DNA of 64,000 bases from Dehalococcoidia bacterium (GTDB lineage: Bacteria > Chloroflexota > Dehalococcoidia > UBA2979), in NCBI GenBank assembly GCA_965220125.1, contig CBDCPB010000004.1, positions 2,383,366 through 2,447,365 of the forward strand, read 5' to 3'. Positions 16,892 through 51,646 of this stretch are shown here, in pieces. The position numbers were made by a program, and so were the translations under genes. The notes under the pieces were generated by a model that saw only the letters and a list, made by a program, of their open reading frames with translations, was not told the origin of the DNA and did no database searches. How positions within the stretch are numbered: position 1 is the stretch's first letter; each line of letters opens with the position of its first letter.

Positions 16892-17161
16892 ATGAGAGAA
16901 ATCACTGCAGCCACCACACAACGGAACCAGGTCACCATTCCCGCCGAGGTCCGCCGCCTTCTTGGCCTGAAGCCCAGGGACAAGGTTGCGTTCACCATCG
17001 AGGACGGGGGTGCGGTGCGCCTGGCGGCGGCGTCCTTCACGCTGGAGTCGACGTACGGCTCCGTGCAGCCCTCAAGCCACCCCGAGGACTTCGATGAGGT
17101 GTCCCGGAATGCCAAGGATGCCAAGGCTGAGCAGACCGCACGCGAACTAAGTGACGCGTGA
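16892..17161 (+). CDS. vapB: AbrB/MazE/SpoVT-fold antitoxin (VapB-like)
   Basis: 'QVTIPAEVRRLLGLKPRDKVAFTIEDGG-VRL' swapped-hairpin motif; ATGA overlap with the downstream PIN gene. AT-rich promoter island 16800-16890 upstream. Confidence 0.7.
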   Translation: MREITAATTQRNQVTIPAEVRRLLGLKPRDKVAFTIEDGGAVRLAAASFTLESTYGSVQPSSHPEDFDEVSRNAKDAKAEQTARELSDA

Positions 17162-17571
17162 GATTCCTCGATACGAACGTCATCCTCAGGTACCTGACCA
17201 GGGATGATGAGGCCAAGGCTGAAGCCTGCTACCAGTTGTTCCAGCAGGTACGGCGCGGGGAGGAAGAGCTCGTCACCTGCGAGGCGATCGTCACGGAAGT
17301 CGTCTACGTGCTTTCCTCCGCTCGCGCTCCCTACAGGCTGAGCCACGAGGAGATTCGAGCCCGGCTCGTACCGATCCTGACGCTTCGGGGCCTCAGGCTC
17401 CCTCAGAAGCGCGTCTACCTCAGCGCTCTGGATCTCTACGCCTCATCTCCGTTCCTTGATTTCGAGGACGCTCTGGCGGTCGCCCACATGGAACGACTGG
17501 GGGTGACGGAGATCGTGAGCTACGACAGGGACTTCGATCGGTTGCCGACACTCCAGCGAGTGGAGCCGTGA
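17158..17571 (+). CDS. vapC: PIN-domain ribonuclease toxin VapC
   Basis: 'FLDTNVILRYL ... D' N-terminal acidic motif plus a later E and the C-terminal 'YDRDFDRL' aspartates typical of VapC. Confidence 0.85.
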   Translation: MRFLDTNVILRYLTRDDEAKAEACYQLFQQVRRGEEELVTCEAIVTEVVYVLSSARAPYRLSHEEIRARLVPILTLRGLRLPQKRVYLSALDLYASSPFLDFEDALAVAHMERLGVTEIVSYDRDFDRLPTLQRVEP

Positions 17572-20294: not shown

Positions 20295-21896
20295 TCACAC
20301 CCATTCCTTGGAGCGAGCGAGAGTCCAGACCAATACCAGTGCGTCGGCACATGCCCCGCTGAGCGGCTCCACAATGTGCGAGGGCAAGAATCTCGGCCTG
20401 TGGCTGACGAGGTTCCGGGTCGCTACAGCGGCTCCGAGAGTGCTCGCGATCCTGCCATCTCGATCTTTCTCGGTAGAGAGAGCCGCCCTCGACATGTCGA
20501 GGGCTCGTCGTTCGAGGTCTCCGGGCCGGTCGTCATTCTGATCGCTAGACTCCAACCTTTTGAACTCCGCGATCCAGGAGCAACCCTGTCCGAGAAGGCG
20601 AATGAATTCCCGGAGTGATCTCGGCATCCTCGACCCTTCCGAAGGACGGAGGTGCGACGACTCTTCAACGAGCACACGGGCCAGCTGCTCAACTGCTAGC
20701 GCCAACGGCCTGAGCCTTCGATTGAGGAGACCTGGAACACGATCGTGGTGCTGATCAGTGATGGTGAACGAGTAGCTTTGGAGGCTCATCAGTACCTCGA
20801 GCAGATCGTGCTCCTTACAGAACTCCACGATGTCCTCGGCGACATCACCGGGGTCGCCGCAATCTGAAGCGATCGTGGCGGCCAGCCCCTCGTTGAGTAC
20901 GGCTCTCAGGACTTCTCGAGCGTCACGGGCCGCAGACTCAACCGGATCGAGATGGCGGAGTCGGGTGGCGAGGCTCAGCCCTCCGTGTTCCTCGGCAGCA
21001 GCGAAGAAGTCCTCCCAGTCATAGCCGAAGGCATGCCCGGCGAGTCTCTCTGCGTCGCGGAGGTACTCCTGAGCGTCTTCGGACAGCGCAATGCGTTCAT
21101 CGCTCCGGTAGTCGTGTATCAGTTCAGCGAGCTTGCCGAGGAACTCGAAGAACTTGGGCTCGTCCATGCCGGACATGTCCAGCGACCGTCGCGCTCGCTG
21201 GCCCAGAACGACGCCGAGCCTTTCGCGACGAGGTGCCGGAAGCCGTTCTCCTACTGAAACGCCATCGAAAGCCTCGTAGTGGGCAGCCTCGTCTGCGAAC
21301 AGAAACAACTCCACTGCATCGAAACCGGCGGCCATCCCGTTCAACGATCGGAGCTCCTCCGTGTCCTCGGGAAGGCGGTACCGCTTCCAGAGTTGGTGCG
21401 ACGGATCCAGATGTTGTAGGAACTGAGAGTGGACATAGTGGTGCTTCTGCTGGCGCAGTAACGCAACGACATGGACTTGCCAGGGGGCGTAGTGCCGCTC
21501 AACCGTCGGAGTCAGCACAGTTCGGCCGTCGGGCATGACTGCTGGTACCCGATCGGAACCCCATTCCTCGAACGTGCTGCAGTCAGGTATCTCAAGGAAC
21601 GGGTTGCGGCCCCGCTGCGCGTCGAACGCATGCAGGCCGTCAGTGTGACCCCGCTGCAGCCTGTCCCAATCTTTTGGTGGAGACGGGGCAGGCCCACGGA
21701 CCGCCGCGTCGGCGAGGCCGTGTGTCTTTCGCTTGATGGCGTACGCGGTCGGCATGCGAGTTCGTGCCATCGGCAGAAGCAAGCAATGCCGCTCGTAGAA
21801 CTCAAGCTCGCGCGGTGACAGCCCCAGGATCCTCAGCGACCAGGCGTGCGAGACAAACTGCTGTACGTCGATGTAGCGCTCGCCGTGTCGGTTCAT
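20295..21896 (-). CDS. hypothetical 533-aa protein, no recognisable family (compositionally atypical)
   Basis: Single clean ORF with amino-acid-like composition and no long antisense ORF covering it. Local GC is visibly lower (~60%) than flanks (~72%). Stem-loop at 21915-21945 separates it from the upstream LLM gene. Confidence 0.6.
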   Translation of the reverse strand: MNRHGERYIDVQQFVSHAWSLRILGLSPRELEFYERHCLLLPMARTRMPTAYAIKRKTHGLADAAVRGPAPSPPKDWDRLQRGHTDGLHAFDAQRGRNPFLEIPDCSTFEEWGSDRVPAVMPDGRTVLTPTVERHYAPWQVHVVALLRQQKHHYVHSQFLQHLDPSHQLWKRYRLPEDTEELRSLNGMAAGFDAVELFLFADEAAHYEAFDGVSVGERLPAPRRERLGVVLGQRARRSLDMSGMDEPKFFEFLGKLAELIHDYRSDERIALSEDAQEYLRDAERLAGHAFGYDWEDFFAAAEEHGGLSLATRLRHLDPVESAARDAREVLRAVLNEGLAATIASDCGDPGDVAEDIVEFCKEHDLLEVLMSLQSYSFTITDQHHDRVPGLLNRRLRPLALAVEQLARVLVEESSHLRPSEGSRMPRSLREFIRLLGQGCSWIAEFKRLESSDQNDDRPGDLERRALDMSRAALSTEKDRDGRIASTLGAAVATRNLVSHRPRFLPSHIVEPLSGACADALVLVWTLARSKEWV

Positions 21897-38171: not shown

Positions 38172-39460
38172 CGACGGAACGCGCAGAAGGGCAGACAACG
38201 ATGCTCACGATGGTCGGCGTCAGTCACCGCAACGCGCCGCTGGGTGTGCGCGAGCGCTTCGCGATCCCCGCGGATGCGCTGCCGGACATCCGCCACGAGG
38301 TGGCCGAGCGCTTCGGATCGGGCGCGATCGTCGCCACCTGCAACCGGCTCGAGCTCTACGTGCCCGGCGACCACGAGCCGGGTGAGCTCACGAGCTTCCT
38401 TTGCGCGGCGGCCGATGTCGGCCCGGACGTCGGCGAGCGCTACCTGCTGCCGCGCCGCGACGAGGAGGCGGTGAGCCACCTCTACGCCGTCGCCGCGGGC
38501 ATCGACTCGATGGTGGTCGGCGAGTCCGAGATCCTCGGGCAGGTCCGCTCCTCGTTCGCCGCGACGGTCGCGGCGGGCGCCGACACGGCGCTGCTCTCGC
38601 GCCTCTTCCACACCGCGATCCGCGTCGGGCGGCGCGCCCGCAGCGAGACCGCGATCGGGCACGGCGCGCTCTCGATCTCCTCGATCGCCGCGCAGCAGGC
38701 TCGTGAGCTCGTCGCCGACCCGGCGACCGCCGCGGTGCTTGTCGTCGGCGCCGGCGAGGCGGGGAGGCTGGCCGCCGCCTCGCTCGTCGATCACGGCGTG
38801 GGCTCGATCGCCGTCAGCAACCGCACCACCTCGCGGGCGGAGGCGCTCGCCGAGGAGCTGGGCGGGCGCAGCGTGCCCTACGGAGCACTCGGCGCCGAGC
38901 TGTCCGCGGCCGACGTCGTGATCGCCGCCACCGACGCGCCGGAGCCCGTACTGAACAGCGGCCGCGTCGCGAGTGCGCTCGTGCGCCGCGAGGGCGCGCC
39001 GCAGCTGATCATCGACATCGGGGTGCCGCGCGCCTGCGATCCCGCCGTCGGCGCCATCCCCGGCGTCACCTACCGCGACATCGACGACCTCCAGGAGATC
39101 GCCGCCACGCACGCCCACGCCCGCGCCGCCGAGGTGCGGGCCGTCGAACGGCTCGTCGTGGAGGAGACGGCGCGCTTCCTCGAGTGGTGGGAGCACCTGC
39201 AGGTCGCGCCGACGATCGCCGCGCTCAGCGAGCGCGCCGAGCAGCTGCGCAGCGCCGAGCTGGCGCGCACGCTGCGGCGGCTCGATCTCGACGCCGCGGA
39301 GCGCCAGCGCGTCGAGGCGATGACGAAGGCGCTGGTGCGCCAGATCCTGCACGACCCGATCTCCGCCCTGCGCGAGCGCGGCGACCGCGATGTCTACGTG
39401 GACGCGGTCCGGCACCTCTTCCGCCTCGACGAGCCGGCGGACCCGCCCGCGGCGCCTTGA
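38168..39460 (+). CDS. hemA: glutamyl-tRNA reductase
   Basis: 'VGVSHRNAPLGVRERF', catalytic 'TCNRLELY', and NADPH-binding 'VLVVGAGEAG' motifs; an alternative start at 38201 is possible. Confidence 0.85.
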   Translation: MTTERAEGQTTMLTMVGVSHRNAPLGVRERFAIPADALPDIRHEVAERFGSGAIVATCNRLELYVPGDHEPGELTSFLCAAADVGPDVGERYLLPRRDEEAVSHLYAVAAGIDSMVVGESEILGQVRSSFAATVAAGADTALLSRLFHTAIRVGRRARSETAIGHGALSISSIAAQQARELVADPATAAVLVVGAGEAGRLAAASLVDHGVGSIAVSNRTTSRAEALAEELGGRSVPYGALGAELSAADVVIAATDAPEPVLNSGRVASALVRREGAPQLIIDIGVPRACDPAVGAIPGVTYRDIDDLQEIAATHAHARAAEVRAVERLVVEETARFLEWWEHLQVAPTIAALSERAEQLRSAELARTLRRLDLDAAERQRVEAMTKALVRQILHDPISALRERGDRDVYVDAVRHLFRLDEPADPPAAP

Positions 39461-40368
39461 CCCCGCTGCGCCTCGCCACGCGCGGATCGCGTCTGGCGCT
39501 CGCGCAGAGCGAGCTTGTCGCCGACGCCCTGCGCGCGCAGCAGCCCGGCATCGAGATCGAGCTCGTGCGCGTCAGGACCGAGGGCGACATCGACCGCAGC
39601 TCGCCACTGACGGAGATCGGCGGGCGCGGCGTCTTCGTGCGCGCGGTCGAGCAGGCGCTGCTCGACGGGCGGGCGGACATCGCCGTGCACTCGCTGAAGG
39701 ACGTGCCCACCGCCGCGCCCGAGGGGCTGACGTTGGCCGCGATCCTGCCGCGCGGCGATCCGCGCGACGTGCTCGTCGCCTCGGGCGGGCGGCGGCTTGC
39801 CGCGCTGCCCTCGGGCGCGCGGGTCGGCAGCGGATCGCGGCGGCGCGCGCTGCTGCTGCGCGCGCTGCGCCCGGACATCGAGGTCGCACCGATCCGCGGC
39901 AACGTCGAGACGCGCCTCGGCAGGGTGGCGAGCGGGGAGTACGACGCCGTCGTGCTGGCGGCGGCCGGCCTCGCGCGCCTCGGACGGCTCGACGAGGCGA
40001 CGCAGCTGTTCGAGCCGATGGAGTTCCTGCCCTCGCCGGGGCAGGGCGCGCTCGCCGTGCAGTGCCGCAACGACGACGCGGCCACGCGCGAGCTGCTGGC
40101 GAGCCTCGACGACGCGCCCACTCGCGCCGCCGTCGAGGCCGAGCGCGGCATCCTCGCCGAGCTGGGCAGCGGCTGTTCCGTGCCCGTCGGGGCCTACGCG
40201 CAGGTCGCGGACGGCCTGCTCGCGCTGCGCGCGATGATCGGCGACGACTCCGGCGAGCAGGCGAGCTTCGGCGACGCCGCCGGCCCCGTGGACGCGGCCG
40301 AGGAGCTCGGCCGCGGCCTCGCGGCGCAGCTCGGCGCGGCCCCGGCCGCCGGGGACGAGCCGCAGTGA
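39457..40368 (+). CDS. hemC: hydroxymethylbilane synthase (porphobilinogen deaminase)
   Basis: 'LRLATRGSRLALAQS', 'GGRGVFVRAVEQALLDGRADIAVHSLKDVPT' and the C-terminal 'GSGCSVPVGAYA' cofactor-cysteine motif. TTG start overlaps the hemA stop. Confidence 0.85.
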   Translation: MTPLRLATRGSRLALAQSELVADALRAQQPGIEIELVRVRTEGDIDRSSPLTEIGGRGVFVRAVEQALLDGRADIAVHSLKDVPTAAPEGLTLAAILPRGDPRDVLVASGGRRLAALPSGARVGSGSRRRALLLRALRPDIEVAPIRGNVETRLGRVASGEYDAVVLAAAGLARLGRLDEATQLFEPMEFLPSPGQGALAVQCRNDDAATRELLASLDDAPTRAAVEAERGILAELGSGCSVPVGAYAQVADGLLALRAMIGDDSGEQASFGDAAGPVDAAEELGRGLAAQLGAAPAAGDEPQ

Positions 40369-41906
40369 GCGCGCCCCAGCCCGAGGCCGGCCGCGTCTGG
40401 TTCGTCGGAGCGGGGCCGGGCGATCCGGGCCTGGTGACGCAGGGCGGCCTGCAGGCGCTGCGCGAGGCCGAGGTCGTGCTCTACGACCGCCTCGCCCCGG
40501 CCGCGCTGCTCGATGCCTGCGCCGCTGGCGCGGAGCGCATCGACGTCGGCAAGGCGCCGGGCCGCGTGGCGATGACACAGGAGCAGATCAACGCCGCGCT
40601 CGTCGCGCACGCGCGCGCGGGCAAGCGCGTCGTGCGCCTCAAGGGCGGCGACCCGTTCGTCTTCGGGCGCGGCGGCGAGGAGTTGGAGGCGCTCGCGGAC
40701 GCGGGCATCGAGGCGACCGTCGTGCCGGGGGTGACCTCGGCGATCGGCGGGGTCGCGGCGGCCGGCATCCCCGTCACGCATCGCGGCGTCGCCGCCAGCT
40801 TCGCCGTCGTCACCGGCCACGAGGACCCCGCCAAGCCCGCCGCGCAGGTGCGCTGGGCCGAGCTGGCGACGGCAACCGACACGCTCGTCGTGCTGATGGG
40901 CGTCGGCCGCCTCGAGGGCATCGCCCGCGCGCTGATCGAGGGCGGACGGCCGCCCGCGACGCCGAGCGCGCTGATCGTCGAGGCGACGACGCCGCGCCAG
41001 CGCGTCGTCGAGGCGCCGCTCGCGGAGATCGCGGCGGCGGCGCGCGAAGCCGGGGTGCAGCCTCCGGCGCTGCTCGTCGTCGGCGAGGTCGTCGCGCTGC
41101 GCGAGCGCCTCGCGCCGGCGCTGCGCCGTCCGCTGGCCGGCTGGCGCGTGCTGGTGACGCGCACGCGGCGGCAGGCCTCGAGCCTCGCCGAGGCGCTGCG
41201 CGCCGAGGGCGCCGAGCCCGTGCTGCTGCCCGCGATCGAGATCGCCCGCCGCGCCGACCCCGAGGCGGTGCGCGCCGCCATCGAGGCGCTGCGCGCGGGC
41301 GCCTACGACTGGGTCGCGTTCACCTCCGGCAACGCCGTCGAGGCCTGGTTCGACCTCGTGCGCGAGGCGGGCGAGGACGCGCGGCTCTTCTCTGGCGCCC
41401 GCATCGCCGCCGTCGGCATCGCGACGGCGCGTGCCCTCGAAGCGCGCGGGCTCGCCGCCGACCTGCTGCCGCCGCGCGCGAGCGGCGGGGGCGTGGCCGA
41501 GGCGCTGCTGGAGTGCGGCGTCGAGGGCGCGCGCGTGCTCCTGCCCCGCGCCGAGCGCGCCGATCCGGCGCTGGTCGAGCGCCTGCGGGCCGCGGGCGCC
41601 TCGGTGGACGAGGTCACGCTCTACCTCGCCGCCCCGCCCGCCGACCCGCCGCCGGAGGTGCTGGCGGCGCTGCGCGCGGGCGAGATCGAGGCGCTGACGT
41701 TCACCTCGTCCTCGACGGTGCGCAATCTCGCCGCCCTGCTCGGCGGCGACCTCGACGCCCTGCGCAACGCCGTCGTCGCCTGCATCGGCCCGCAGACCGC
41801 CGAGGCCGCACGCGAGGCGGGCCTGCCCCCGCACGTGGTCGCCGAGCACGCCTCGGTCGACGCACTCGTGGCGGCGCTGCGAAGATACGCGGCGGGGGAG
41901 GCGTGA
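40365..41906 (+). CDS. cobA-hemD: fused uroporphyrinogen-III C-methyltransferase / uroporphyrinogen-III synthase
   Basis: N-terminal SAM-dependent tetrapyrrole methylase ('VWFVGAGPGDPGLVT', 'VVRLKGGDPFVFGRGGEE') joined to a C-terminal HemD-like domain ('WRVLVTRTRRQASSLAEAL..'). Confidence 0.85.
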   Translation: MSAPQPEAGRVWFVGAGPGDPGLVTQGGLQALREAEVVLYDRLAPAALLDACAAGAERIDVGKAPGRVAMTQEQINAALVAHARAGKRVVRLKGGDPFVFGRGGEELEALADAGIEATVVPGVTSAIGGVAAAGIPVTHRGVAASFAVVTGHEDPAKPAAQVRWAELATATDTLVVLMGVGRLEGIARALIEGGRPPATPSALIVEATTPRQRVVEAPLAEIAAAAREAGVQPPALLVVGEVVALRERLAPALRRPLAGWRVLVTRTRRQASSLAEALRAEGAEPVLLPAIEIARRADPEAVRAAIEALRAGAYDWVAFTSGNAVEAWFDLVREAGEDARLFSGARIAAVGIATARALEARGLAADLLPPRASGGGVAEALLECGVEGARVLLPRAERADPALVERLRAAGASVDEVTLYLAAPPADPPPEVLAALRAGEIEALTFTSSSTVRNLAALLGGDLDALRNAVVACIGPQTAEAAREAGLPPHVVAEHASVDALVAALRRYAAGEA

Positions 41907-42913
41907 TGGCGACCAAGTCTGAGTTAGGCACGCTGCAATACATCGAACCAAGAAACGTCTGGGAGCACGAAGCGCATGACTTCACGCCTTGGCTTGAGGA
42001 GAACATCGACCTGCTCGGCGATGCGATAGGGCTGGATATAGAGATCACTGGCCGTGAGGTGGCCGTCGGGAGCTTCAGCCTCGACCTCCTCGGGAAGGAA
42101 GCCAATACCGAACGCACCGTGATCATCGAGAACCAACTGGAGCGAACGGATCACGATCACCTCGGCAAGACCCTCACGTACGCTGCGGGCCTCGATGCGC
42201 GGGTCATTGTATGGGTCAGCAGCGATGTCCGGGACGAGCACCGCGAGGCCATCCATTGGCTCAACGAACACACCGCTGAGACTGTTAGCTTCTTCGCCGT
42301 CGAAATCGAGATCCTCCGGATCGGCGAATCCCTGCCGGCCCTCCGGCTGAACGTCGTTGCTCAGCCCAGCGAGTTTCAGCGAGAAGTCGTCAGGAAGTCG
42401 GTGGCTCCGCCCACAGCCAGACAAACCGCATACCAGACATTCTTCACCAAGTTGGTGGAGGCGTTGCACTCAGCGCACCCAGGGTTCACACGAGTTCGCG
42501 CGGACAGCGTGAGCACAGCAACGGGCAAGAACTTCTCGACCGGAGTGCAAGGGCTAACTGTTGGCGCATGGTTCTCGGGCGGCGGGGAGCTCTGGGTGGA
42601 GACTTGGATCGCCGTGGGATCTAAGGAGCAGAACAAGATCGCTTTCGAGAGGCTCTACAATCAGCGCGAAGTGATCGAAGACACTGTGGGCGGACCGTTG
42701 ACTTGGGAGAAGAAGGAAGACCGCAAGGGCTCGCGCGTGTCGCTGCGCAGACCCGGCTCGATAGATTCGTCAGAATCTGAACTCCAAGGCCTCTCGGAGT
42801 GGGCCGTCGACCTCCTCCCCAAGTTCCGCGATGCCTTCGCTCCTCGTATAGCGGCCCTCGACCTCGACGCCCTCGTCGCCGACGCCACCAGGGACAACAG
42901 GTTTCGTCTATGA
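41906..42913 (+). CDS. PD-(D/E)XK (NucS/DUF91-like) nuclease-fold protein with a C-terminal domain I recall as DUF4268
   Basis: '[38 protein letters not shown]' is the D...E-x-Q/K restriction-endonuclease-like core. ATGA overlap with the cobA-hemD stop. Local GC is clearly lower (~57%) than the surrounding hem genes. Confidence 0.55.
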
Positions 42914-42974
42914 CGAACCCACAGACGGCCTGCCGGCACTCCGGCCTCCCGAAGCGCACGAGGAGGACAGCCCC

Positions 42975-43973
42975 ATGACCATCGCCACACGCACGCGGGC
43001 GTTCGCGCGCACGAGGAGGCTGCGCAGCTCCGAGGCGCTGCGCGGGCTGGTGCGCGAGACGCGGCTCGACCCGGCCTCCTTCGTCTATCCGCTGTTCGTG
43101 ACCGAGGGGCGCGGCGTGCGCCAGCCGATCGAGTCGATGCCCGGGCAGGCGCGGCTCTCGACCGACATGCTCGCCGCGGAGGCGGCGGAGTTGCGCGATC
43201 TCGGCGTGCGCGCGGTGCTGCTGTTCGGCGTGCCCGACCTCAAGGACGCCGAGGGCAGCGGCGCCTGGGCGAGCGACGGCATCACGCAGCAGGCGATCGC
43301 GGCGCTCAAGCAGGCCGACCCCTCGCTGGCCGTAATCGCCGACGTCTGCCTCTGCGAGTACACGGACCACGGGCACTGCGGACCGATCAGCGCGCGTGGC
43401 GAGGTGGAGAACGACGCCGCGATCGAGTTGCTCGCGCGCACCTCGGTCTCGCTCGCCGAGGCAGGCGTGGACATGGTCGCGCCCTCGGACATGATGGACG
43501 GGCGCGTCGGCGCGATCCGCGAGGCGCTCGACGAGTCCGGCTTCGCGCAGTTGCCGATCATGGCCTACAGCGCGAAGTACGCCTCGGCCTTCTACGGGCC
43601 GTTCCGCGAGGCTGCCGACTCGGCCCCGCAGTTCGGCGACCGCCGCGGCTACCAGATGGACCCGCCGAACGTGCGCGAGGCCGTGCGTGAGGCCGCGATC
43701 GACATCGCCGAGCAGGCCGACATCGTGATGGTGAAGCCGGCGCTCGCCTACCTCGACGTGGTGCGCGCGGTGCGCGACTCGACCGAACTGCCGCTCGCGG
43801 CGTACAACGTCTCCGGCGAGTACGCGATGTTGAAGGCGGCGGCCGCACAGGGCTGGATCGACGAGCGCGGCGCCGTCCTCGAGGCGCTGACCGGGATCCG
43901 CCGCGCCGGCGCCGACATCCTGATCACGTACCACGCGAAGGAGGCGGCGCGCTGGCTACGCGAGACGCGGTGA
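42975..43973 (+). CDS. hemB: porphobilinogen synthase (delta-aminolevulinate dehydratase)
   Basis: 'FVYPLFV', Zn-site '[14 protein letters not shown]', active-site Lys region '[12 protein letters not shown]' and 'YNVSGEYAM'. Confidence 0.9.
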
Positions 43974-44794
43974 CGACGACCGACGAGGCGCCCGCCGAGG
44001 GAGCGTCGGGGGAGGGGGCGCCCTTCGACGCGGGCGCGATTCGCGCCGTGGCCTTCGACGGCTACGGCACGCTCCTCGACTGGGACTTCCGTGTCGCGCT
44101 GCGCGAGGCGCTCGACCAGCAGGGCCTCGCCGTCGAGGACTTCGACGCGACGGCGAAGAGCTTCGCGAAGGCCTGGAACAGCGTCAGCCCCTGGGGCGAC
44201 CGCGTCGACGACGAGGGCAAACCGGACCGCGAGTACATGCTCCACGGCCCCGTGCCCGAGTTCATCACCACCTGGGAGATCTGGCGGCGCCAGTTTGCCT
44301 GGGTCTTCGAGGACCAGGGCCTCGACGGCGACCCGGCCGCCGGCGCGAACCACTTCCGCGAGGTGCTGAGCCACGCACCGGCCTACCCCGGCACGCGCGA
44401 CGTAGTGGATGCCCTCGATGCAGCCGGCTACCGGCTCGCGCTGCTCTCGAACGCGGACGAGGACTTCCTGCAGAGCGCCATCTCGCACAACCGGCTGCGC
44501 TTCTCCGTTATCCAGTCTTCCGAATCGCTGCGGAACTACAAGCCGCATCGCGCCGTCTTCGACGAGACGTGCCACCGCCTCGGCTGCGACCCCGCCGAGG
44601 TGCTCTACGTCGGCGACTCGCCGCAGGCCGACGTGCTGGGCGCCGACCACGCCGGGCTGCCCGTCGCCTGGGTGCGACGCGAGGAGGACGCCGAACTGGC
44701 CGAGGACTTGCCCACGCCGGCCCTCGAGGTGACCGAACTGTCCGAGGTGGCAGAGGCGCTCGGCGTACCGCTGCGGAGCGCGGTCGCCCCGTGA
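43970..44794 (+). CDS. HAD-superfamily hydrolase (haloacid dehalogenase-like)
   Basis: '[11 protein letters not shown]' motif I, 'LSNADE' motif II region and '[13 protein letters not shown]' motif IV. Sits between hemB and hemL with start and stop overlaps. Confidence 0.75.
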
Positions 44795-46110
44795 GTGCGG
44801 AGGCGTCAGGCCGCCCACTCGAGCGCTCGCGCGCGCTGATGGCGCGGGCGCAGGCCGTGCTCCCCGGCGGCGTCAACTCGCCCGCGCGCGCCTACCGCGC
44901 CGTCGGCGGCGACCCGGTCGTGCTCGCCAGCGGCGCGGGCGCGATCGTCACGGACGCGGATGGCAACGAGTACATCGACTACCTCGGATCGTTCGGTCCG
45001 CTGATCCTCGGCCACGCGCACCCGGTGGTGGTCGATGCGGTGGCGCAGGCGGCGGCGCGCGGCACCTCCTTCGGCGCGCCGACCGAGGCGGAGCTGGAGC
45101 TGGCGGAACTGGTCGTCGAGGCGCTGCCCTCGGTGGAGATGGTGCGCCTCGTCAACTCCGGAACCGAGGCGGTGATGAGCGCGCTGCGGCTCGCCCGCGC
45201 GGCCACCGGGCGCGACCTGATCGTGAAGTTCGAGGGCGGCTACCACGGCCACTCGGACGGGCTGCTCGCCGCCGCCGGGTCGGGCGTCGCCACCCTCGGG
45301 CTGCCGGACTCGCCCGGCGTGCCGGCCGCCTTCGCCGCGCAGACGCTGCTCGCCCCCTACAACGACGCCGCGGCCGTCGAGGCGATCTTCGAGGCGCATC
45401 CCGGCGCCGTCGCCGCCGTCATCGTCGAGCCAGTCGCCGGCAACATGGGCGTCGTGCCGCCGCGCGACGGCTTCCTCGAGGCGCTGCGGCGGCTCTGCGA
45501 CGCGCACGGCGCGCTGCTCGTCTTCGACGAGGTGATCACCGGCTTCCGCGTCGGCTGGTCCGGCGCGCAGGGCCGCTACGGCGTGCGCCCGGACCTCACG
45601 ACGCTCGGCAAGGTGATCGGCGGCGGCCTGCCGGTCGGCGCCTACGGCGGACCGCGCGAGCTGCTGGAGCAGATGGCGCCGGCCGGCGGCGTCTACCAGG
45701 CAGGCACGCTCTCCGGTAATCCGCTGGCGACGGCGGCCGGCCTCGCGACGCTGCGCACGCTGCAGGCCGACGAGGCCGCCTACGCGCGCCTCGAGGCGCT
45801 CGGCGCGCAGCTCGCCGACGGCGTCGCAGACGCGGCGCGCGAGGCGGGCGTGCCGTTCGCGGTCGCGCGCGTCGGGTCGGCGCTGACCGGCTTCTTCCGC
45901 GCCGAGGCGCCGGGCGACTACGCCGAAGCGGCGCAGAGCGACACCGCGCGCTTCGCCCGCTTCCACCGCGCGCTGCTCGATGGCGGCGTCATGCTGCCGC
46001 CCTCGCAGTTCGAGGCCTGGTTCGTCTCCCTCGCCCACGACGAGGCGCTGATCGAGCGCACCGTCGAGGCCGTCGCCGGCGCGCTGCGCGAGGCCGCCTC
46101 CGAGGCGTAG
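44791..46110 (+). CDS. hemL: glutamate-1-semialdehyde 2,1-aminomutase
   Basis: '[12 protein letters not shown]', '[10 protein letters not shown]', 'VNSGTEA' and PLP-lysine region '[19 protein letters not shown]'; GTG start overlaps the HAD stop. Confidence 0.9.
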
Positions 46111-46290
46111 CGCCTTCGCGAGCCCGCTCTCCGGGCTTCGGGAACCCAGCGCCCCCCTGCGACGTACTCTACCTATGACTACTCGGGCAGGGCGGCGCTC
46201 CGCACGGACTCCGCAACCGGGAGGCGCCGGATGAGAGCGCTGATCCTCGCAATAGGCATCGTCCTGTCCGTCGCCGCCCTTGCTGCCTCC
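46026..46290. repeat. segmental duplication copy A (hemL 3' end + intergenic promoter + signal-peptide start), paired with 48745-49050
   Basis: ~80% identity to 48745-49050, including a degenerate copy of the hemL C-terminus ([14 protein letters not shown]...ASEA*) and the shared start 'atgagagc(g/a)(c/t)tgatcctcgcaat(a/c)ggcatcgtcctg'. Confidence 0.65.
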
Positions 46291-48702
46291 AGCGCCCTCG
46301 CGTCAGCGTCGCCGGCGCCGTCCGGCGATTCGCAGCCCGCTGTCGTTGCCCAGCCCCACGACACGTCGCCGCCGGGCAGTTCGTTCACCTCGATCAGCGC
46401 CGGGACGCTCCACAGCTGCGGGCTCAGGACCGGCGGTTCCGTCGTCTGCTGGGGCTGGGACTTCTATGAGCAGTCCACGCCGCCCGCTGGTTCCTTCACC
46501 TCCGTTAGCGCCGGGGGGTTCCACAACTGCGGGTTGAAGGCCGGCGGCCTGGCAGAGTGCTGGGGCTGGGGTGGGTTGCGCCAGTCGACGCCGCCCAGCG
46601 ATCCCCTCGCGTCCGTCAGTGCCGGGCGGTTCCACACCTGCGGAGTGACGAGCGAGGGTGCGGTCCTCTGCTGGGGCAGGAACAACGAGGGCCAGACCAC
46701 GCCGCCTGACGGCTCGTTCGCCTCGGTCAGCGCCGGAGGAGACCACAGCTGCGGGGTGACAACGGAGGGGGCCGTGCGCTGCTGGGGCAAGAACGACCAG
46801 GGTCAGGCCACCCCGCCTGACGGCTCGTTCGCCTCGGTCAGCGCCGGAGGAGACCACAGCTGCGGGGTGACGACGGAGGGCGCGGTGCGCTGCTGGGGCA
46901 AGAACGACGATGGCCAGGCCACGCCGCACCTCGGCGCCTTCAGCTCAGTCAGTGCCGGTGACGATCACAGTTGCGGCGTGAGGACCGACGAGGCAGTCGT
47001 CTGCTGGGGCAGCGACGAATGGGGCCAGGTCCCGCCGCCCGGCGGCGCCTTCGGCTCCGTCAATGCTGGAGGGAGCCACAGCTGCGGGGTCGAGACCGGC
47101 GGCGCTGTCGTGTGCTGGGGCCTGGATTCACATGGACAGTCCACGCCCCCAGGCCGCGCCTACCTATCGATCAGCGTCGGTCATGAGCACACCTGTGGGG
47201 TGCGCGCTGATGGTTCGCTGCTCTGCTGGGGCCGGAACAACGAGGGCCAGGCCACGCCACCCGACGGCGCCTTTACCTCTGTCAGCGTCGGCATGTGGTC
47301 CAGTTGCGCGGTGAAGACCAACCGGTCTGTCTCGTGCTGGGGCAGGAACGACGACGGGGAGGCCTCGCCGCCGGAAGGTTCGTTCACCTCGGTGACCGTT
47401 GGGCCGAGCCATGCTTGCGGGCTGACGACGGACATGGCCGTCGTGTGCTGGGGTGACGGATCCTTCGGCAAGACCTCGCCGCCAGCCGGATCCTTCACAT
47501 CCATAGGCGCCGGCTGGGCCCTCACCTGCGGCGTGAAGACCGACAGCTCGATCGCGTGCTGGGGCTGGGATGTGGATGGCCGAACTTTGGTCCCCGCTGG
47601 CTCGTTCGCCTCGATCAGCGTTGGTGCGCACCACGCTTGTGGGGTGAGAACCGACAGCACGGTCGCATGTTGGGGCAGGAACGACCACGGGGAGGCCTCG
47701 CCGCCGGCCGGCTCGTTCACCGCCGTCAGCGCCGGCGCGGAGCACAGTTGCGGGATCAAGACCAATGGCTCGGTCGTGTGCTGGGGCGGCGACATCTCCG
47801 GCGAGACCTCGCCGCCCGGGGGCGCCTTCAACTCCCTGAGCGCCGGATTGCACTACAGCTGCGGTGTGAAGGCCGCCGGTCCAGCCGTGTGCTGGGGCCG
47901 AGGGGTCAATGGCCATGCCTTGCCGCCGCACGAGGCCCACCCGCCCGCCGGGGCCTTCAGCTCCCTCAGCGGCGGACCTTCTCACACCTGCGGGTTGAAG
48001 CCCGACGGTACCGTCGCCTGCTGGGGAAGGGACGCCGATGGGCGGGTCTTGTCGCCGGTCGGCTCGTTCATCTCCCTCAGCGCCGGGTTGCGCCAGACCT
48101 GCGCGGTGCGGACCGACGGCGCCATCGCGTGCTGGGGATGGGGCGCTGGAGTGCGAGGCTCGCCGCCTGGCGGCTCGTTCAGCTCAGTCAGCGTCGGGAC
48201 TGACCACGCCTGCGGCGTACGGACGGACGGCTCAGTCCGCTGCTGGGGCGGGAACTGGGATGGTCAAAGTTCGCCGCCCGACGACTCATTCACCTCCGTC
48301 AGCGCCGGCGGGAACCACACCTGTGGGTTGCGGGCCGACGGTTCGGTCGTCTGCTGGGGTTGGGACGCCCAGGGCGAAGCCACGCCGCCGACCGGTTCGT
48401 TCACGGCCCTCAGCGCCGGGTGGGACCACACATGCGGGCTATTGGCCGATGGCTCGGTCGCCTGCTGGGGAGGTAACGATCACGGAAAGGCAGTGCCGCC
48501 GGCGGGCTCCTTCAATTCCGTCAGCGCAGGATGGCACCACACCTGTGGCCTGCGGACGGACGGTACCGTTGCATGCTGGGGCTACGACTACCACGGCCAG
48601 TCTTCGCCCCCCGATGGCTCCTTTGCTTCCGTCAGCGCCGGTTCAGTCCACAGCTGCGGGGTGAAGACGGACGGGACCGTTGTGTGCTGGGGCATGGACT
48701 GA
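46231..48702 (+). CDS. secreted RCC1-like (BLIP-II/beta-propeller) repeat protein, 823 aa with ~26 tandem repeats
   Basis: Signal peptide then ~29-aa units 'GSF(T/A)SVSAGxxHSCGVxTDGSVVCWGxNxxGQ(S/A)TPP', the RCC1/alpha-tubulin-suppressor repeat signature. Confidence 0.8.
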   Translation: MRALILAIGIVLSVAALAASSALASASPAPSGDSQPAVVAQPHDTSPPGSSFTSISAGTLHSCGLRTGGSVVCWGWDFYEQSTPPAGSFTSVSAGGFHNCGLKAGGLAECWGWGGLRQSTPPSDPLASVSAGRFHTCGVTSEGAVLCWGRNNEGQTTPPDGSFASVSAGGDHSCGVTTEGAVRCWGKNDQGQATPPDGSFASVSAGGDHSCGVTTEGAVRCWGKNDDGQATPHLGAFSSVSAGDDHSCGVRTDEAVVCWGSDEWGQVPPPGGAFGSVNAGGSHSCGVETGGAVVCWGLDSHGQSTPPGRAYLSISVGHEHTCGVRADGSLLCWGRNNEGQATPPDGAFTSVSVGMWSSCAVKTNRSVSCWGRNDDGEASPPEGSFTSVTVGPSHACGLTTDMAVVCWGDGSFGKTSPPAGSFTSIGAGWALTCGVKTDSSIACWGWDVDGRTLVPAGSFASISVGAHHACGVRTDSTVACWGRNDHGEASPPAGSFTAVSAGAEHSCGIKTNGSVVCWGGDISGETSPPGGAFNSLSAGLHYSCGVKAAGPAVCWGRGVNGHALPPHEAHPPAGAFSSLSGGPSHTCGLKPDGTVACWGRDADGRVLSPVGSFISLSAGLRQTCAVRTDGAIACWGWGAGVRGSPPGGSFSSVSVGTDHACGVRTDGSVRCWGGNWDGQSSPPDDSFTSVSAGGNHTCGLRADGSVVCWGWDAQGEATPPTGSFTALSAGWDHTCGLLADGSVACWGGNDHGKAVPPAGSFNSVSAGWHHTCGLRTDGTVACWGYDYHGQSSPPDGSFASVSAGSVHSCGVKTDGTVVCWGMD

Positions 48703-50102: not shown

Positions 50103-51646
50103 GAGAGTCGTCTGATCCGCAAGGGCCGACGTGGCGGCCGCCTGCGCCGTCCTAGCGAGCGCGCCTCCCATCCGCGGCCCTGTGGTGGTCGTCGGTGCCG
50201 ATGCGAGTGGTCCCGTCGTGTCGTCCCCGGGAAGTCGTGTTGGCCATGCTTCCATTCGCACTCGTCGAGGGGCCGCTCCGGGCCCGGTGCATGATGGACA
50301 ACCTGTCTCCAGGATGTGGGCGCTGCCATCTACCTGCCGTCCTCGTTGGGACCAGTGGTCGCCGCAGTCGCCCGCGTGTCGGCATCTGTCGCATCCTCCG
50401 AAGCCCACCGGCCGCCCGGTCGCCCCGCTCCTCGCGTGCTGCCTGCTGCTACGCCGCCTCGGCCGCGCGCGCCTGGCGCAACGGCTCGTAGACCTCGCCG
50501 CTCTTCCAGAGCGCGAGCATCAGCACCGCTAGTCGCCTCGCGACCGCGACGACGGCACGCTTCTTCGCATTGCCGGCCCCCGACTCCGCGTAGCGCAGCC
50601 CCCATCGCCTGAGGTCGCTATCGGGGCCGAACGGGCCCAGGATGTAGTGCGCGGCCTGGCTCAGCACCCGGCGCAGCGCCACGTCCCCGTCCTTCGTGAT
50701 CCGGAGCTGGGGCTGCCGGTCGCCGGAATCGCGGCTTCTGGGCACCAGTCCGAGGTAGGGGCCGATCTCCCGGTTCTTCGGGAAGCGGGTCGGGTCCTCG
50801 ATGGTGAGGACGAAGGTGAGCGAGGTGATCGGACCGACGCCCGCGATCTGCCGGAGCGCGCCGGTCTCCGTGTAGCGCTCGCACATCGCGGCGATCTCCG
50901 CGTCGGCTTGGCGGATCTCCCCGGTCAGCTGCTCGATCTGCCGCAGCACCGGCAGCAGCGCCGGGCGTAGCTCCCCCGGGATGTGCCCGGCGACCGCACG
51001 GTGGAAGGCCGGCGTCGTGCAGCTCGGGAGCGCCGCGCCCCACGCCTTCACCGCGCCCCGGACGTGGTTGATGAGCGCGGTCCTCGCCCGCATCAGCGCG
51101 TCGCGGCTGCGGAGGACCTGGAGGTCCGCCTGTGCCGTGGCGCCCCGGTGCCGGATGGGAAAGAGGAGCTTCGGGTCGTATCGTCCGAGCCGTGCGAGGT
51201 GCTCGGCATCGGAGCGGTCATTCTTGCGCTGGCTGCGCGCGATCAGCTTTACCTGCCTCGGGTTGGCGACTATGACGTCGTGCCCGAGCGTCGAGAACAT
51301 CCGGCTCAGCCACGGGGACCGCGGCCCCACCTCCAGCACCACCCGCGCGTCCTGCAGTGGCGCGAGCGCCCGGGTGAGCGCCGCGGTCGTGGTGCGGACT
51401 CGCTCCTCCCGGAGGATCTCCCCGTCGTCCCCGAGGATGCAGAGGTGGCTGTAGCGGTCGCTCACGTCGATCCCGATGGTCACGAGCTCCGCGTCCCCCA
51501 CCCTCCTGCTCTCTGCGACTGCTGTACCCTGTGCCATGGTCGGTCTCCTACCTCGCTCAGGCTCGTCAGAGCCGTTCCTGGCCCACCTACGTGAGGCCGT
51601 CTTCTTGGGGGGAAGTATCCCCTCTGAGGAGGGGACCGACTCTCAT
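50103..51646 (-). mobile_element. IS110-family (IS1111-like subgroup) insertion sequence with 10-bp terminal inverted repeats, inserted in the vWA gene
   Basis: Termini 'atgagagtcg' (50101-50110) and its reverse complement 'cgactctcat' (51637-51646). Joining the flanks restores '...NGTYHF|HPIYLADRE...' of the vWA protein. 116-nt 5' region and 343-nt 3' non-coding region relative to the recombinase. Confidence 0.7.
50449..51537 (-). CDS. IS110-family DEDD transposase/recombinase (IS1111-like)
   Basis: 'LVTIGIDVSDRYSHLCIL', 'VVLEVGPRSPW' RuvC-like N-domain and C-terminal Tnp domain with 'IAGVGPITSLTFVLTIEDPTRFPKNREIGPYLGLVPRSRDSG'. Confidence 0.9.
   Translation of the reverse strand: MAQGTAVAESRRVGDAELVTIGIDVSDRYSHLCILGDDGEILREERVRTTTAALTRALAPLQDARVVLEVGPRSPWLSRMFSTLGHDVIVANPRQVKLIARSQRKNDRSDAEHLARLGRYDPKLLFPIRHRGATAQADLQVLRSRDALMRARTALINHVRGAVKAWGAALPSCTTPAFHRAVAGHIPGELRPALLPVLRQIEQLTGEIRQADAEIAAMCERYTETGALRQIAGVGPITSLTFVLTIEDPTRFPKNREIGPYLGLVPRSRDSGDRQPQLRITKDGDVALRRVLSQAAHYILGPFGPDSDLRRWGLRYAESGAGNAKKRAVVAVARRLAVLMLALWKSGEVYEPLRQARAAEAA

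Follow-up and report, generated by a model that had tools for sequence, protein, structure and literature searches.

The window analysed here is a 64,000-nucleotide stretch of contig CBDCPB010000004.1 from a Dehalococcoidia bacterium, and the subject of this study is a gene coding for a 335-amino-acid protein on its plus strand (41906..42913), lying inside a heme biosynthesis operon. Defined by its open reading frame (ORF), its translation and a PADLOC match, this gene belongs to the PDC-S11 (Madara) family and encodes a putative modification-dependent nuclease. Its upstream neighbour is a cobA/hemD fusion gene encoding 513 amino acids (40365..41906, plus strand; Pfam TP_methylase and HEM4), the start of which was set by comparison with the related locus L005, and its downstream neighbour is hemB, coding for porphobilinogen synthase (42975..43973, plus strand; Pfam ALAD, E=1e-146). 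A sequence-only reading of the window had placed an ORF of this length between cobA-hemD and hemB, quoted a motif from it and interpreted it as a recent foreign insertion; the ORF and the motif were confirmed. The whole operon extends over 36799..46110 on the plus strand, in the order HTH/MerR (36799-37431), sirC (37440-38171), hemA (38168-39460), hemC (39457-40368), cobA-hemD, PDC-S11, hemB, HAD (43970-44794) and hemL (44791-46110). These Pfam assignments agree with the gene order and the start/stop coupling described earlier, the overlaps between neighbouring operon genes being 4 nt.

The junctions of the gene were compared with those of 10 other loci in which the nuclease is embedded among hem genes (L002-L005, L086-L089, L102 and L169). 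At the left junction of the window (41897..41908, plus strand), a GGAGG motif (41897-41901) precedes the cobA/hemD stop codon TGA (41904-41906) and the nuclease ATG (41906-41908). The previously noted overlap of start and stop is real, not as an ATGA but through a single nucleotide (TGATG), with GGAGG 4 nt upstream of the ATG, and this configuration is kept in L002-L005. The last cobA/hemD codons (41878-41906; ..CTG CGA AGA TAC GCG GCG..) look rare for the genome and are nearly identical in nucleotides across the window and L002-L005 (five loci compared), and the C-terminus of cobA/hemD differs at the equivalent position in L006, a genome without the nuclease at this site. The nuclease gene may have brought this 3' end with it, or the stretch may be kept constant because translation of that gene is initiated there. 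At the right junction, a 61-nt spacer with a GAGGAGG motif at 42960-42966 (42914..42974, plus strand) separates the nuclease stop from the hemB ATG at 42975; among the other loci, only L087 has this spacer. In L003, L004, L005, L088 and L169 both ends of the nuclease gene overlap the adjacent hem genes, at the right end through its stop and the hemB ATG. The spacer was considered as a structured RNA or a terminator and rejected as both, as its RNA fold was no better than that of shuffled sequence (z = -1.05) and no terminator-like site was found in it. On the plus strand, no promoter-like or terminator-like site was found at either nuclease junction; over the whole operon no terminator-like site was found on that strand, and the sole promoter-like site lies inside hemB at 43468. 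These results support the proposed reliance of the nuclease gene on the transcription of the operon, and we infer that it is co-transcribed with the heme genes.

The base composition changes abruptly at the gene. Its GC content is 0.601, compared with 0.779 in the 3 kb to the left, 0.739 in the 3 kb to the right and 0.718 in the whole window, and among all 1008-nt stretches of the window the ORF has the lowest GC, with the minimum at start position 41904 and only 0.014% of stretches as low. The sequence-only reading was right on the low GC, though not on its value, given as ~57%, and right on the different codon style: the GC content at third codon positions (GC3) is 0.74 in the nuclease gene and 0.93-0.96 in cobA/hemD, hemB, HAD and hemL.

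The protein is a member of the PDC-S11 family. The PADLOC profile PDLC04911 matches it with E=7.4e-103 and 342 bits (residues 5-316 on profile positions 3-313 of 318), and PDLC04914 and PDLC04912 follow with E~1e-87; three of the four PDC-S11 hidden Markov models match over the full length (E=7e-103 to 1e-87), PDLC04913 matching the C-terminal half alone. The orthologues of L088, L102 and L169 match PDC-S11 likewise. This family comprises 11,323 representatives of 50%-identity clusters at E<=1e-3, and is also encountered in 68 plasmid records from bacteria and haloarchaea and in one archaeal provirus, the Klebsiella plasmid matches covering the DUF4268 half only. DUF4268 itself, which the sequence-only reading had proposed for the C-terminal half, was identified there by Pfam (PF14088; E=3.5e-14, 53.4 bits for a cut-off of 27) at residues 176-314, on profile positions 2-139 of 140 (42431..42847, plus strand). 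It is the sole family detected in the protein by Pfam up to E=1, and NCBIfam detected nothing. Here DUF4268 is a putative sensor for modified DNA; elsewhere it is mostly known from its recurrent fusions to GmrSD Type IV restriction enzymes.

The N-terminal domain (about residues 1-165; 41906..42400, plus strand) was assigned from its predicted structure as a NucS-like PD-(D/E)XK nuclease. An AlphaFold2 model based on 71 homologues reached a mean pLDDT of 89 and contains a helix (22-32), three strands (45-54, 57-65 and 71-80), a second helix (83-95) and a further strand (100-107), which corresponds to the alpha-beta-beta-beta-alpha-beta core of PD-(D/E)XK enzymes as far as the model can tell, with Q in place of the canonical K. 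This substitution is a known variant, found in BglII. The predicted catalytic motif (42083..42136, plus strand; alignment and model) consists of D60 (42083-42085), which sits on the second strand of the model, and E75-N76-Q77 (42128-42136), with E75 and Q77 on the third; in an alignment of 71 sequences (42-100% identity) these residues do not vary. Independently, Foldseek ranked NucS and EndoMS first for the nuclease domain, with about 111-114 residues aligned. At 14-18% identity to these enzymes (PDB 2vld, 5gke) and without a sequence-level match, the protein has neither the two-domain architecture of NucS nor sequence-level homology to it: it lacks the NucS N-terminal DNA-binding domain, carries DUF4268 instead, and reads ExQ where the canonical motif is ExK.

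Proteins of comparable build have been studied in other bacteria. The PDC-S11 protein of E. coli ECOR34, renamed Madara, restricts T-even phages with glucosyl-hydroxymethylcytosine (glucosyl-hmC) and not T4(C); it combines an N-terminal NucS-like nuclease, inactive as D63A, with a C-terminal putative modification sensor, and its authors leave a 'non-specific abortive response' possible (bioRxiv 10.64898/2026.09.05.749240). Like the window protein, Madara is a single protein of ~330 amino acids whose NucS-like PD-(D/E)XK domain is N-terminal and whose putative sensor is C-terminal, and its essential D63 stands near the invariant D60, a correspondence by numbering and not by alignment. The Madara gene stands by itself in a BREX defence island and has its own promoter, silenced by H-NS, whereas the window gene has no promoter and is coupled within a heme operon. 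Two DUF4268-containing genes, mdgA and mdgB, protect against modified T4, and purified MdgA degrades modified T4 DNA, an activity abolished by E77A (10.1101/2025.02.28.640651). The MdgA and MdgB nucleases restrict T4 and not unmodified T4-GT7, and MdgB was reported from the soil phyla Actinomycetota and Acidobacteriota (10.1016/j.chom.2025.07.005). The catalytic E77 of MdgA is close to E75 of the window protein, again in numbering and not in an alignment, and the likeness of MdgA and MdgB to the window protein is one of description that does not imply orthology; they were recovered as isolated metagenomic inserts without operon context, whereas the window gene lies inside an operon. A NucS-like nuclease is also fused to another sensor in END-Mag, which targets hypermodified phages as well. 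From the modular modification-dependent (Type IV) restriction enzymes, namely GmrSD-DUF4268 fusions, MspJI, AspBHI and the END nucleases, the window protein differs in how nuclease and sensor are combined, being devoid of DUF262/DUF1524, SRA and iEndoIII. The defence role put forward in the sequence-only reading is likely given this family, whose members Madara and MdgA restrict modified phages. PDC candidates were put forward because they lie in defence islands; the window gene does not, the neighbours being heme-biosynthesis genes in 11/11 loci. Such a location is a contextual feature of the PDC-S11 family and not a molecular one.

The nuclease occupies the cobA/hemD-hemB slot in the 10 other loci, all from a Chloroflexota lineage of ~72% GC. 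Its closest homologue, 80% identical, lies in this slot on another megabase-scale contig, as do homologues at 70, 69, 65, 63, 58 and 57% identity and those of two metagenome contigs (53% and 44%); L169, found through a HemB 90% identical to that of the window, also holds the nuclease there. The flanking hem proteins of the 10 loci are 73-96% identical to those of the window and the nuclease alleles 44-80%. The closest HemB relatives with a name, at 88-91% identity, are metagenome-assembled genomes labelled "Chloroflexota bacterium". For thirteen further homologues (48-70% identical) the longest contig is equal in length to that of a close HemB homologue, several of these contigs being only 2-5 kb, which suggests many more hem-embedded cases beyond these 10 loci. 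In a neighbour-joining tree of 87 family members, nine hem-embedded alleles (without L102) form one clade with 98% bootstrap support, and with L102 the support is 58%.

Two of these loci show further rearrangements. In L089, a 4.7-kb metagenome contig, the order over positions 1-2800 is cobA/hemD, nuclease, HAD with no hemB between, and hemB appears to have been deleted or relocated in that genome. In L002, a secondary insertion of ~1 kb (L002:6997-8046) with two minus-strand ORFs of 181 and 194 amino acids lies between the nuclease and hemB, flanked by near-repeats of the nuclease-gene end (...CGAGGAGGC...). These ORFs gave weak, sub-threshold, mutually consistent matches to the toxin TumE (Pfam, E=0.006) and the antitoxin TumA (NCBIfam, E=0.004).

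A HemB scan of genome contigs supplied outgroup empty sites and not the close relatives, none of the matches listed being closer than 78% identity. The cobA/hemD-hemB junction is empty in three more distant genomes, L006, L007 and L009 (HemB 70-79% identical). In L006 the cobA/hemD stop directly overlaps the hemB GTG start; the insertion thus entered an already coupled junction and kept the coupling. In a further genome, L010, the same junction contains a 1.2-kb gap with an ORF that looks NUDIX-like by eye and no nuclease, and L010 lends no support to the idea of a general defence hotspot at this junction.

These comparisons bear directly on the proposal that a selfish or foreign low-GC nuclease was recently acquired in the hem operon of this genome and has not yet ameliorated to host composition. 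In its favour are a GC of 0.60, compared with 0.72-0.79, that drops sharply right at the gene borders, a widespread and mobile family (the plasmid records, the provirus and the thousands of cluster representatives) and the empty sites of the three more distant genomes. Against it, the slot is filled in the 10 other loci, with alleles that belong to one clade and whose identity has fallen to 44-80%. Further, no flanking direct repeats, integrase or tRNA were found at the nuclease borders, and a classical mobile element was rejected on these grounds. Finally, the composition does not date the event: all hem-embedded orthologues are equally low in GC (0.59-0.63), and GC3 is 0.73-0.78 in the nuclease genes of five loci compared with 0.90-0.98 in neighbouring genes of the same genomes. 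The low GC here is therefore no sign of a recent arrival. We consider a recent acquisition, as the sequence-only reading had it, very improbable and already largely refuted; that reading had named orthologues of native GC at the same position as evidence against itself, and the relatives do have orthologues at that position, not with native GC but with equally low GC. Taken as a whole, the earlier interpretation is partly supported.

In L086, a second, truncated PDC-S11/DUF4268 paralogue (L086:2338-3213, plus strand; called as 252 amino acids) lies just upstream of the intact gene (L086:3277-4278). It lacks the N-terminus, D60 and the ENQ/TDHDH residues, has the GC (0.77) and GC3 (0.95) typical of its host, and shows a strong coding signature. 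This copy may be a nuclease-dead derivative still under selection. Its composition fits the idea that GC3 is held down by selection in active nucleases, for example to limit translation, and could equally reflect a separate origin of that copy.

The history of the nuclease alleles differs from that of the genes around them. A flank tree, built from CobA/HemD, HemB and HemL, was compared with the nuclease tree. The former groups the window with L088 (100%), L005 with L087 (100%) and L003 with L169 (99.5%), none of which was recovered in the nuclease tree (for the window with L088, 0/100 replicates). Conversely, the nuclease tree groups the window with L002 (100%) and L087 with L102 and L169 (99.5%), neither of which was recovered in the flank tree, where L102 groups with the empty-site genomes L006 and L007 (100%), themselves devoid of the nuclease. 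The pair formed by the window and L088 is the most telling: their flanking proteins are 94-98% identical and their nucleases 58%, and nucleotide identity, 0.91-0.99 in the flanks, falls to 0.47-0.71 exactly across 41900-42950 and then recovers. Synonymous differences (pS) for this pair reach 0.66 in the nuclease, compared with 0.11 in hemB, whereas between the window and L002 the order is reversed in synonymous divergence (dS 1.0 vs 0.39). Because the order reverses between pairs, the conflict between gene and flanks is not merely a matter of faster protein evolution. Purifying selection on the nuclease gene is shown by its ratio of nonsynonymous to synonymous divergence (dN/dS) of 0.11-0.34. 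Among hem-embedded alleles, the mean pairwise identity is 51% in the DUF4268 half and 67% in the N-terminal domain. The 61-nt spacer before hemB, present in the window and L087 and not in their nearest relatives, is a further sign of mosaicism. In our reading, ancient allele classes have been exchanged, or retained over long periods, at a fixed locus, and recombination in the conserved hem genes is the likely route of exchange.

This allele pattern also weighs on the possibility that the protein is a housekeeping nuclease derived from NucS, acting close to the replication origin in DNA repair or recombination, or in tetrapyrrole metabolism. Its fixed position in every close relative examined, its translational coupling and its dN/dS would suit such a role, the nearest solved fold is that of the mismatch-repair nuclease NucS/EndoMS, and the operon lies about 6-9 kb from dnaN. 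Yet alleles that diverge to 58% identity between flanks of 94-98% are unlike a housekeeping gene; the domain that NucS uses to bind DNA is replaced by the Type IV restriction-linked DUF4268, the family was chosen as a defence candidate and two of its members confer phage resistance, and more distant relatives do without the nuclease. We regard a housekeeping function as unlikely.

Nor do we favour an indiscriminate toxic DNase, switched on by infection or kept in check by another factor, acting in abortive infection or addiction and persisting mainly because its deletion from an essential operon is costly, an improbable reading in our assessment. It draws on the abortive response that the Madara authors leave possible, on the harm that an imprecise deletion would do to cobA/hemD or to the coupling of hemB, and on the probable TumE/TumA-like pair inserted beside the nuclease in L002, for which both matches are weak and below threshold; a low GC3 could also throttle a toxic product. 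However, no conserved antitoxin or immunity gene adjoins the nuclease, hem genes being its neighbours in all loci, purified MdgA cuts modified DNA selectively, and embedding in the operon does not stop precise replacement, since alleles have clearly been swapped.

We thus propose, as the probable explanation, that the gene is an old, stably kept and hypervariable immune gene coding for a PDC-S11 nuclease similar to Type IV restriction enzymes that uses the transcription of the heme operon. By analogy with characterized family members, modification-dependent cleavage of invading DNA is the most likely mechanism. The NucS-like PD-(D/E)XK domain (D60, E75, Q77) would cut DNA and DUF4268 would recognise hypermodified phage DNA, so that modified invaders would be cleaved and host DNA spared. 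Having no promoter of its own, the nuclease would be transcribed with the heme operon and coupled to it in translation, resulting in steady expression at housekeeping level. An ancestor of the ~72% GC Chloroflexota lineage would have captured the nuclease into the formerly coupled cobA/hemD-hemB junction, and the lineage would since have kept it intact under purifying selection. Ancient alleles, most divergent in the sensor domain, would have been reshuffled between genomes as cassettes bounded by hem genes, the pattern that an arms race with phages should leave at such a locus.

Several points weigh against this proposal. No sequence profile detects the N-terminal half (Pfam up to E=1, NCBIfam, PDB sequences), phmmer and profile search both being without a relevant match among PDB sequences; for this reason the nuclease assignment rests on predicted structure and motif. 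In other words, the PD-(D/E)XK core seen in the sequence-only reading stands in the model and the motif, and not in a match to a sequence profile of that clan (DUF91/NucS). The motif itself reads D...ExQ and not the canonical D...ExK. In fold searches the C-terminal domain resembles T3SS (type III secretion system)-chaperone, YbjN and DUF1054 folds and is not near the EVE, PUA or SRA readers of modified bases, and we therefore infer a sensor role for DUF4268 from its associations. The enzymatic activity of the window protein and its dependence on DNA modification are extrapolated from its relatives Madara and MdgA. A fixed operon position in every close relative examined is core-gene behaviour, atypical for defence. 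All hem-embedded loci except L169 were found via the nuclease itself and do not measure its frequency across the lineage. Finally, the proposal does not account for the persistently low GC3 (0.73-0.78).

A more far-reaching version of the immune-gene proposal, which we put forward tentatively, would make the junction a fixed, hypervariable innate-immunity locus within an essential operon, with allele classes that cross species and a low GC3 that is selected. Balancing selection, or repeated cassette exchange with hem genes as homology arms, may maintain such a locus; the operon may provide constant expression and make deletion costly, and the low GC3 may limit translation of a dangerous nuclease, which the L086 paralogue would fit. 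Core defence hotspots of P. aeruginosa likewise have a chromosomal position bounded by core genes and a varying defence content exchanged between strains (PMC10250203). Hotspots known so far, though, are islands between genes in which many kinds of system occur, each regulated separately, whereas the window slot is part of an essential operon and is always filled by a single gene family, in which the allele varies and not the type of system.

Other features of the operon and of the window were also recorded. The HAD-family hydrolase gene (43970-44794, plus strand) is coupled in translation between hemB and hemL, likewise in all related loci, and its product diverges much faster (64-86% identity) than the surrounding hem genes. 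Directly downstream of hemL, 46231-48702 (plus strand) encodes an 823-amino-acid protein with 17 RCC1 repeats; related loci hold other genes there, such as those for a CarboxypepD_reg-like or a vWA protein, and the stretch between the hem operon and dnaN is a variable region. A second low-GC gene (20295-21896, minus strand; 533 amino acids, GC 0.62, GC3 0.70) sits between CoA-transferase and luciferase-like monooxygenase genes and gave no match in Pfam, NCBIfam or PADLOC. A PIN-domain (VapC-like) toxin gene at 17158-17571 (plus strand) is also below its surroundings in GC (0.61) and GC3 (0.78). Two IS110-family transposase genes lie some way off on either side of the hem operon region, at 33706-34929 (plus strand) and 50449-51537 (minus strand). 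The sole match to Rfam in the window, 'Actinobacteria sRNA Ms_AS-4' (34530-34611, minus strand, 66 bits), lies antisense inside the first of them; it was rejected as an sRNA gene or taxon clue on account of this position and probably marks the insertion sequence element.

The protein itself adds little, being one more member of a family of ~11,000 representatives whose anti-phage role was shown in 2025-26. It is the genomic arrangement that matters: all close relatives examined have a promoterless putative defence nuclease coupled within an essential heme operon. The usual description of defence genes is of mobile, patchily distributed genes that cluster in islands and are regulated separately. 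The arrangement found here is unusual, differing from described defence islands and from hotspots flanked by core genes. Yet the nuclease alleles are shuffled between genomes, and their synonymous sites diverge more than 10 times faster than those of the adjacent hemB. A caution also follows for the interpretation of genome composition: in a high-GC genome, a gene of low GC need not have arrived recently. The locus offers a natural system for asking how immune genes can be fixed and diverse at once, whether a place inside an essential operon guards them against loss, and whether toxic defence proteins may be restrained through codon and GC content.

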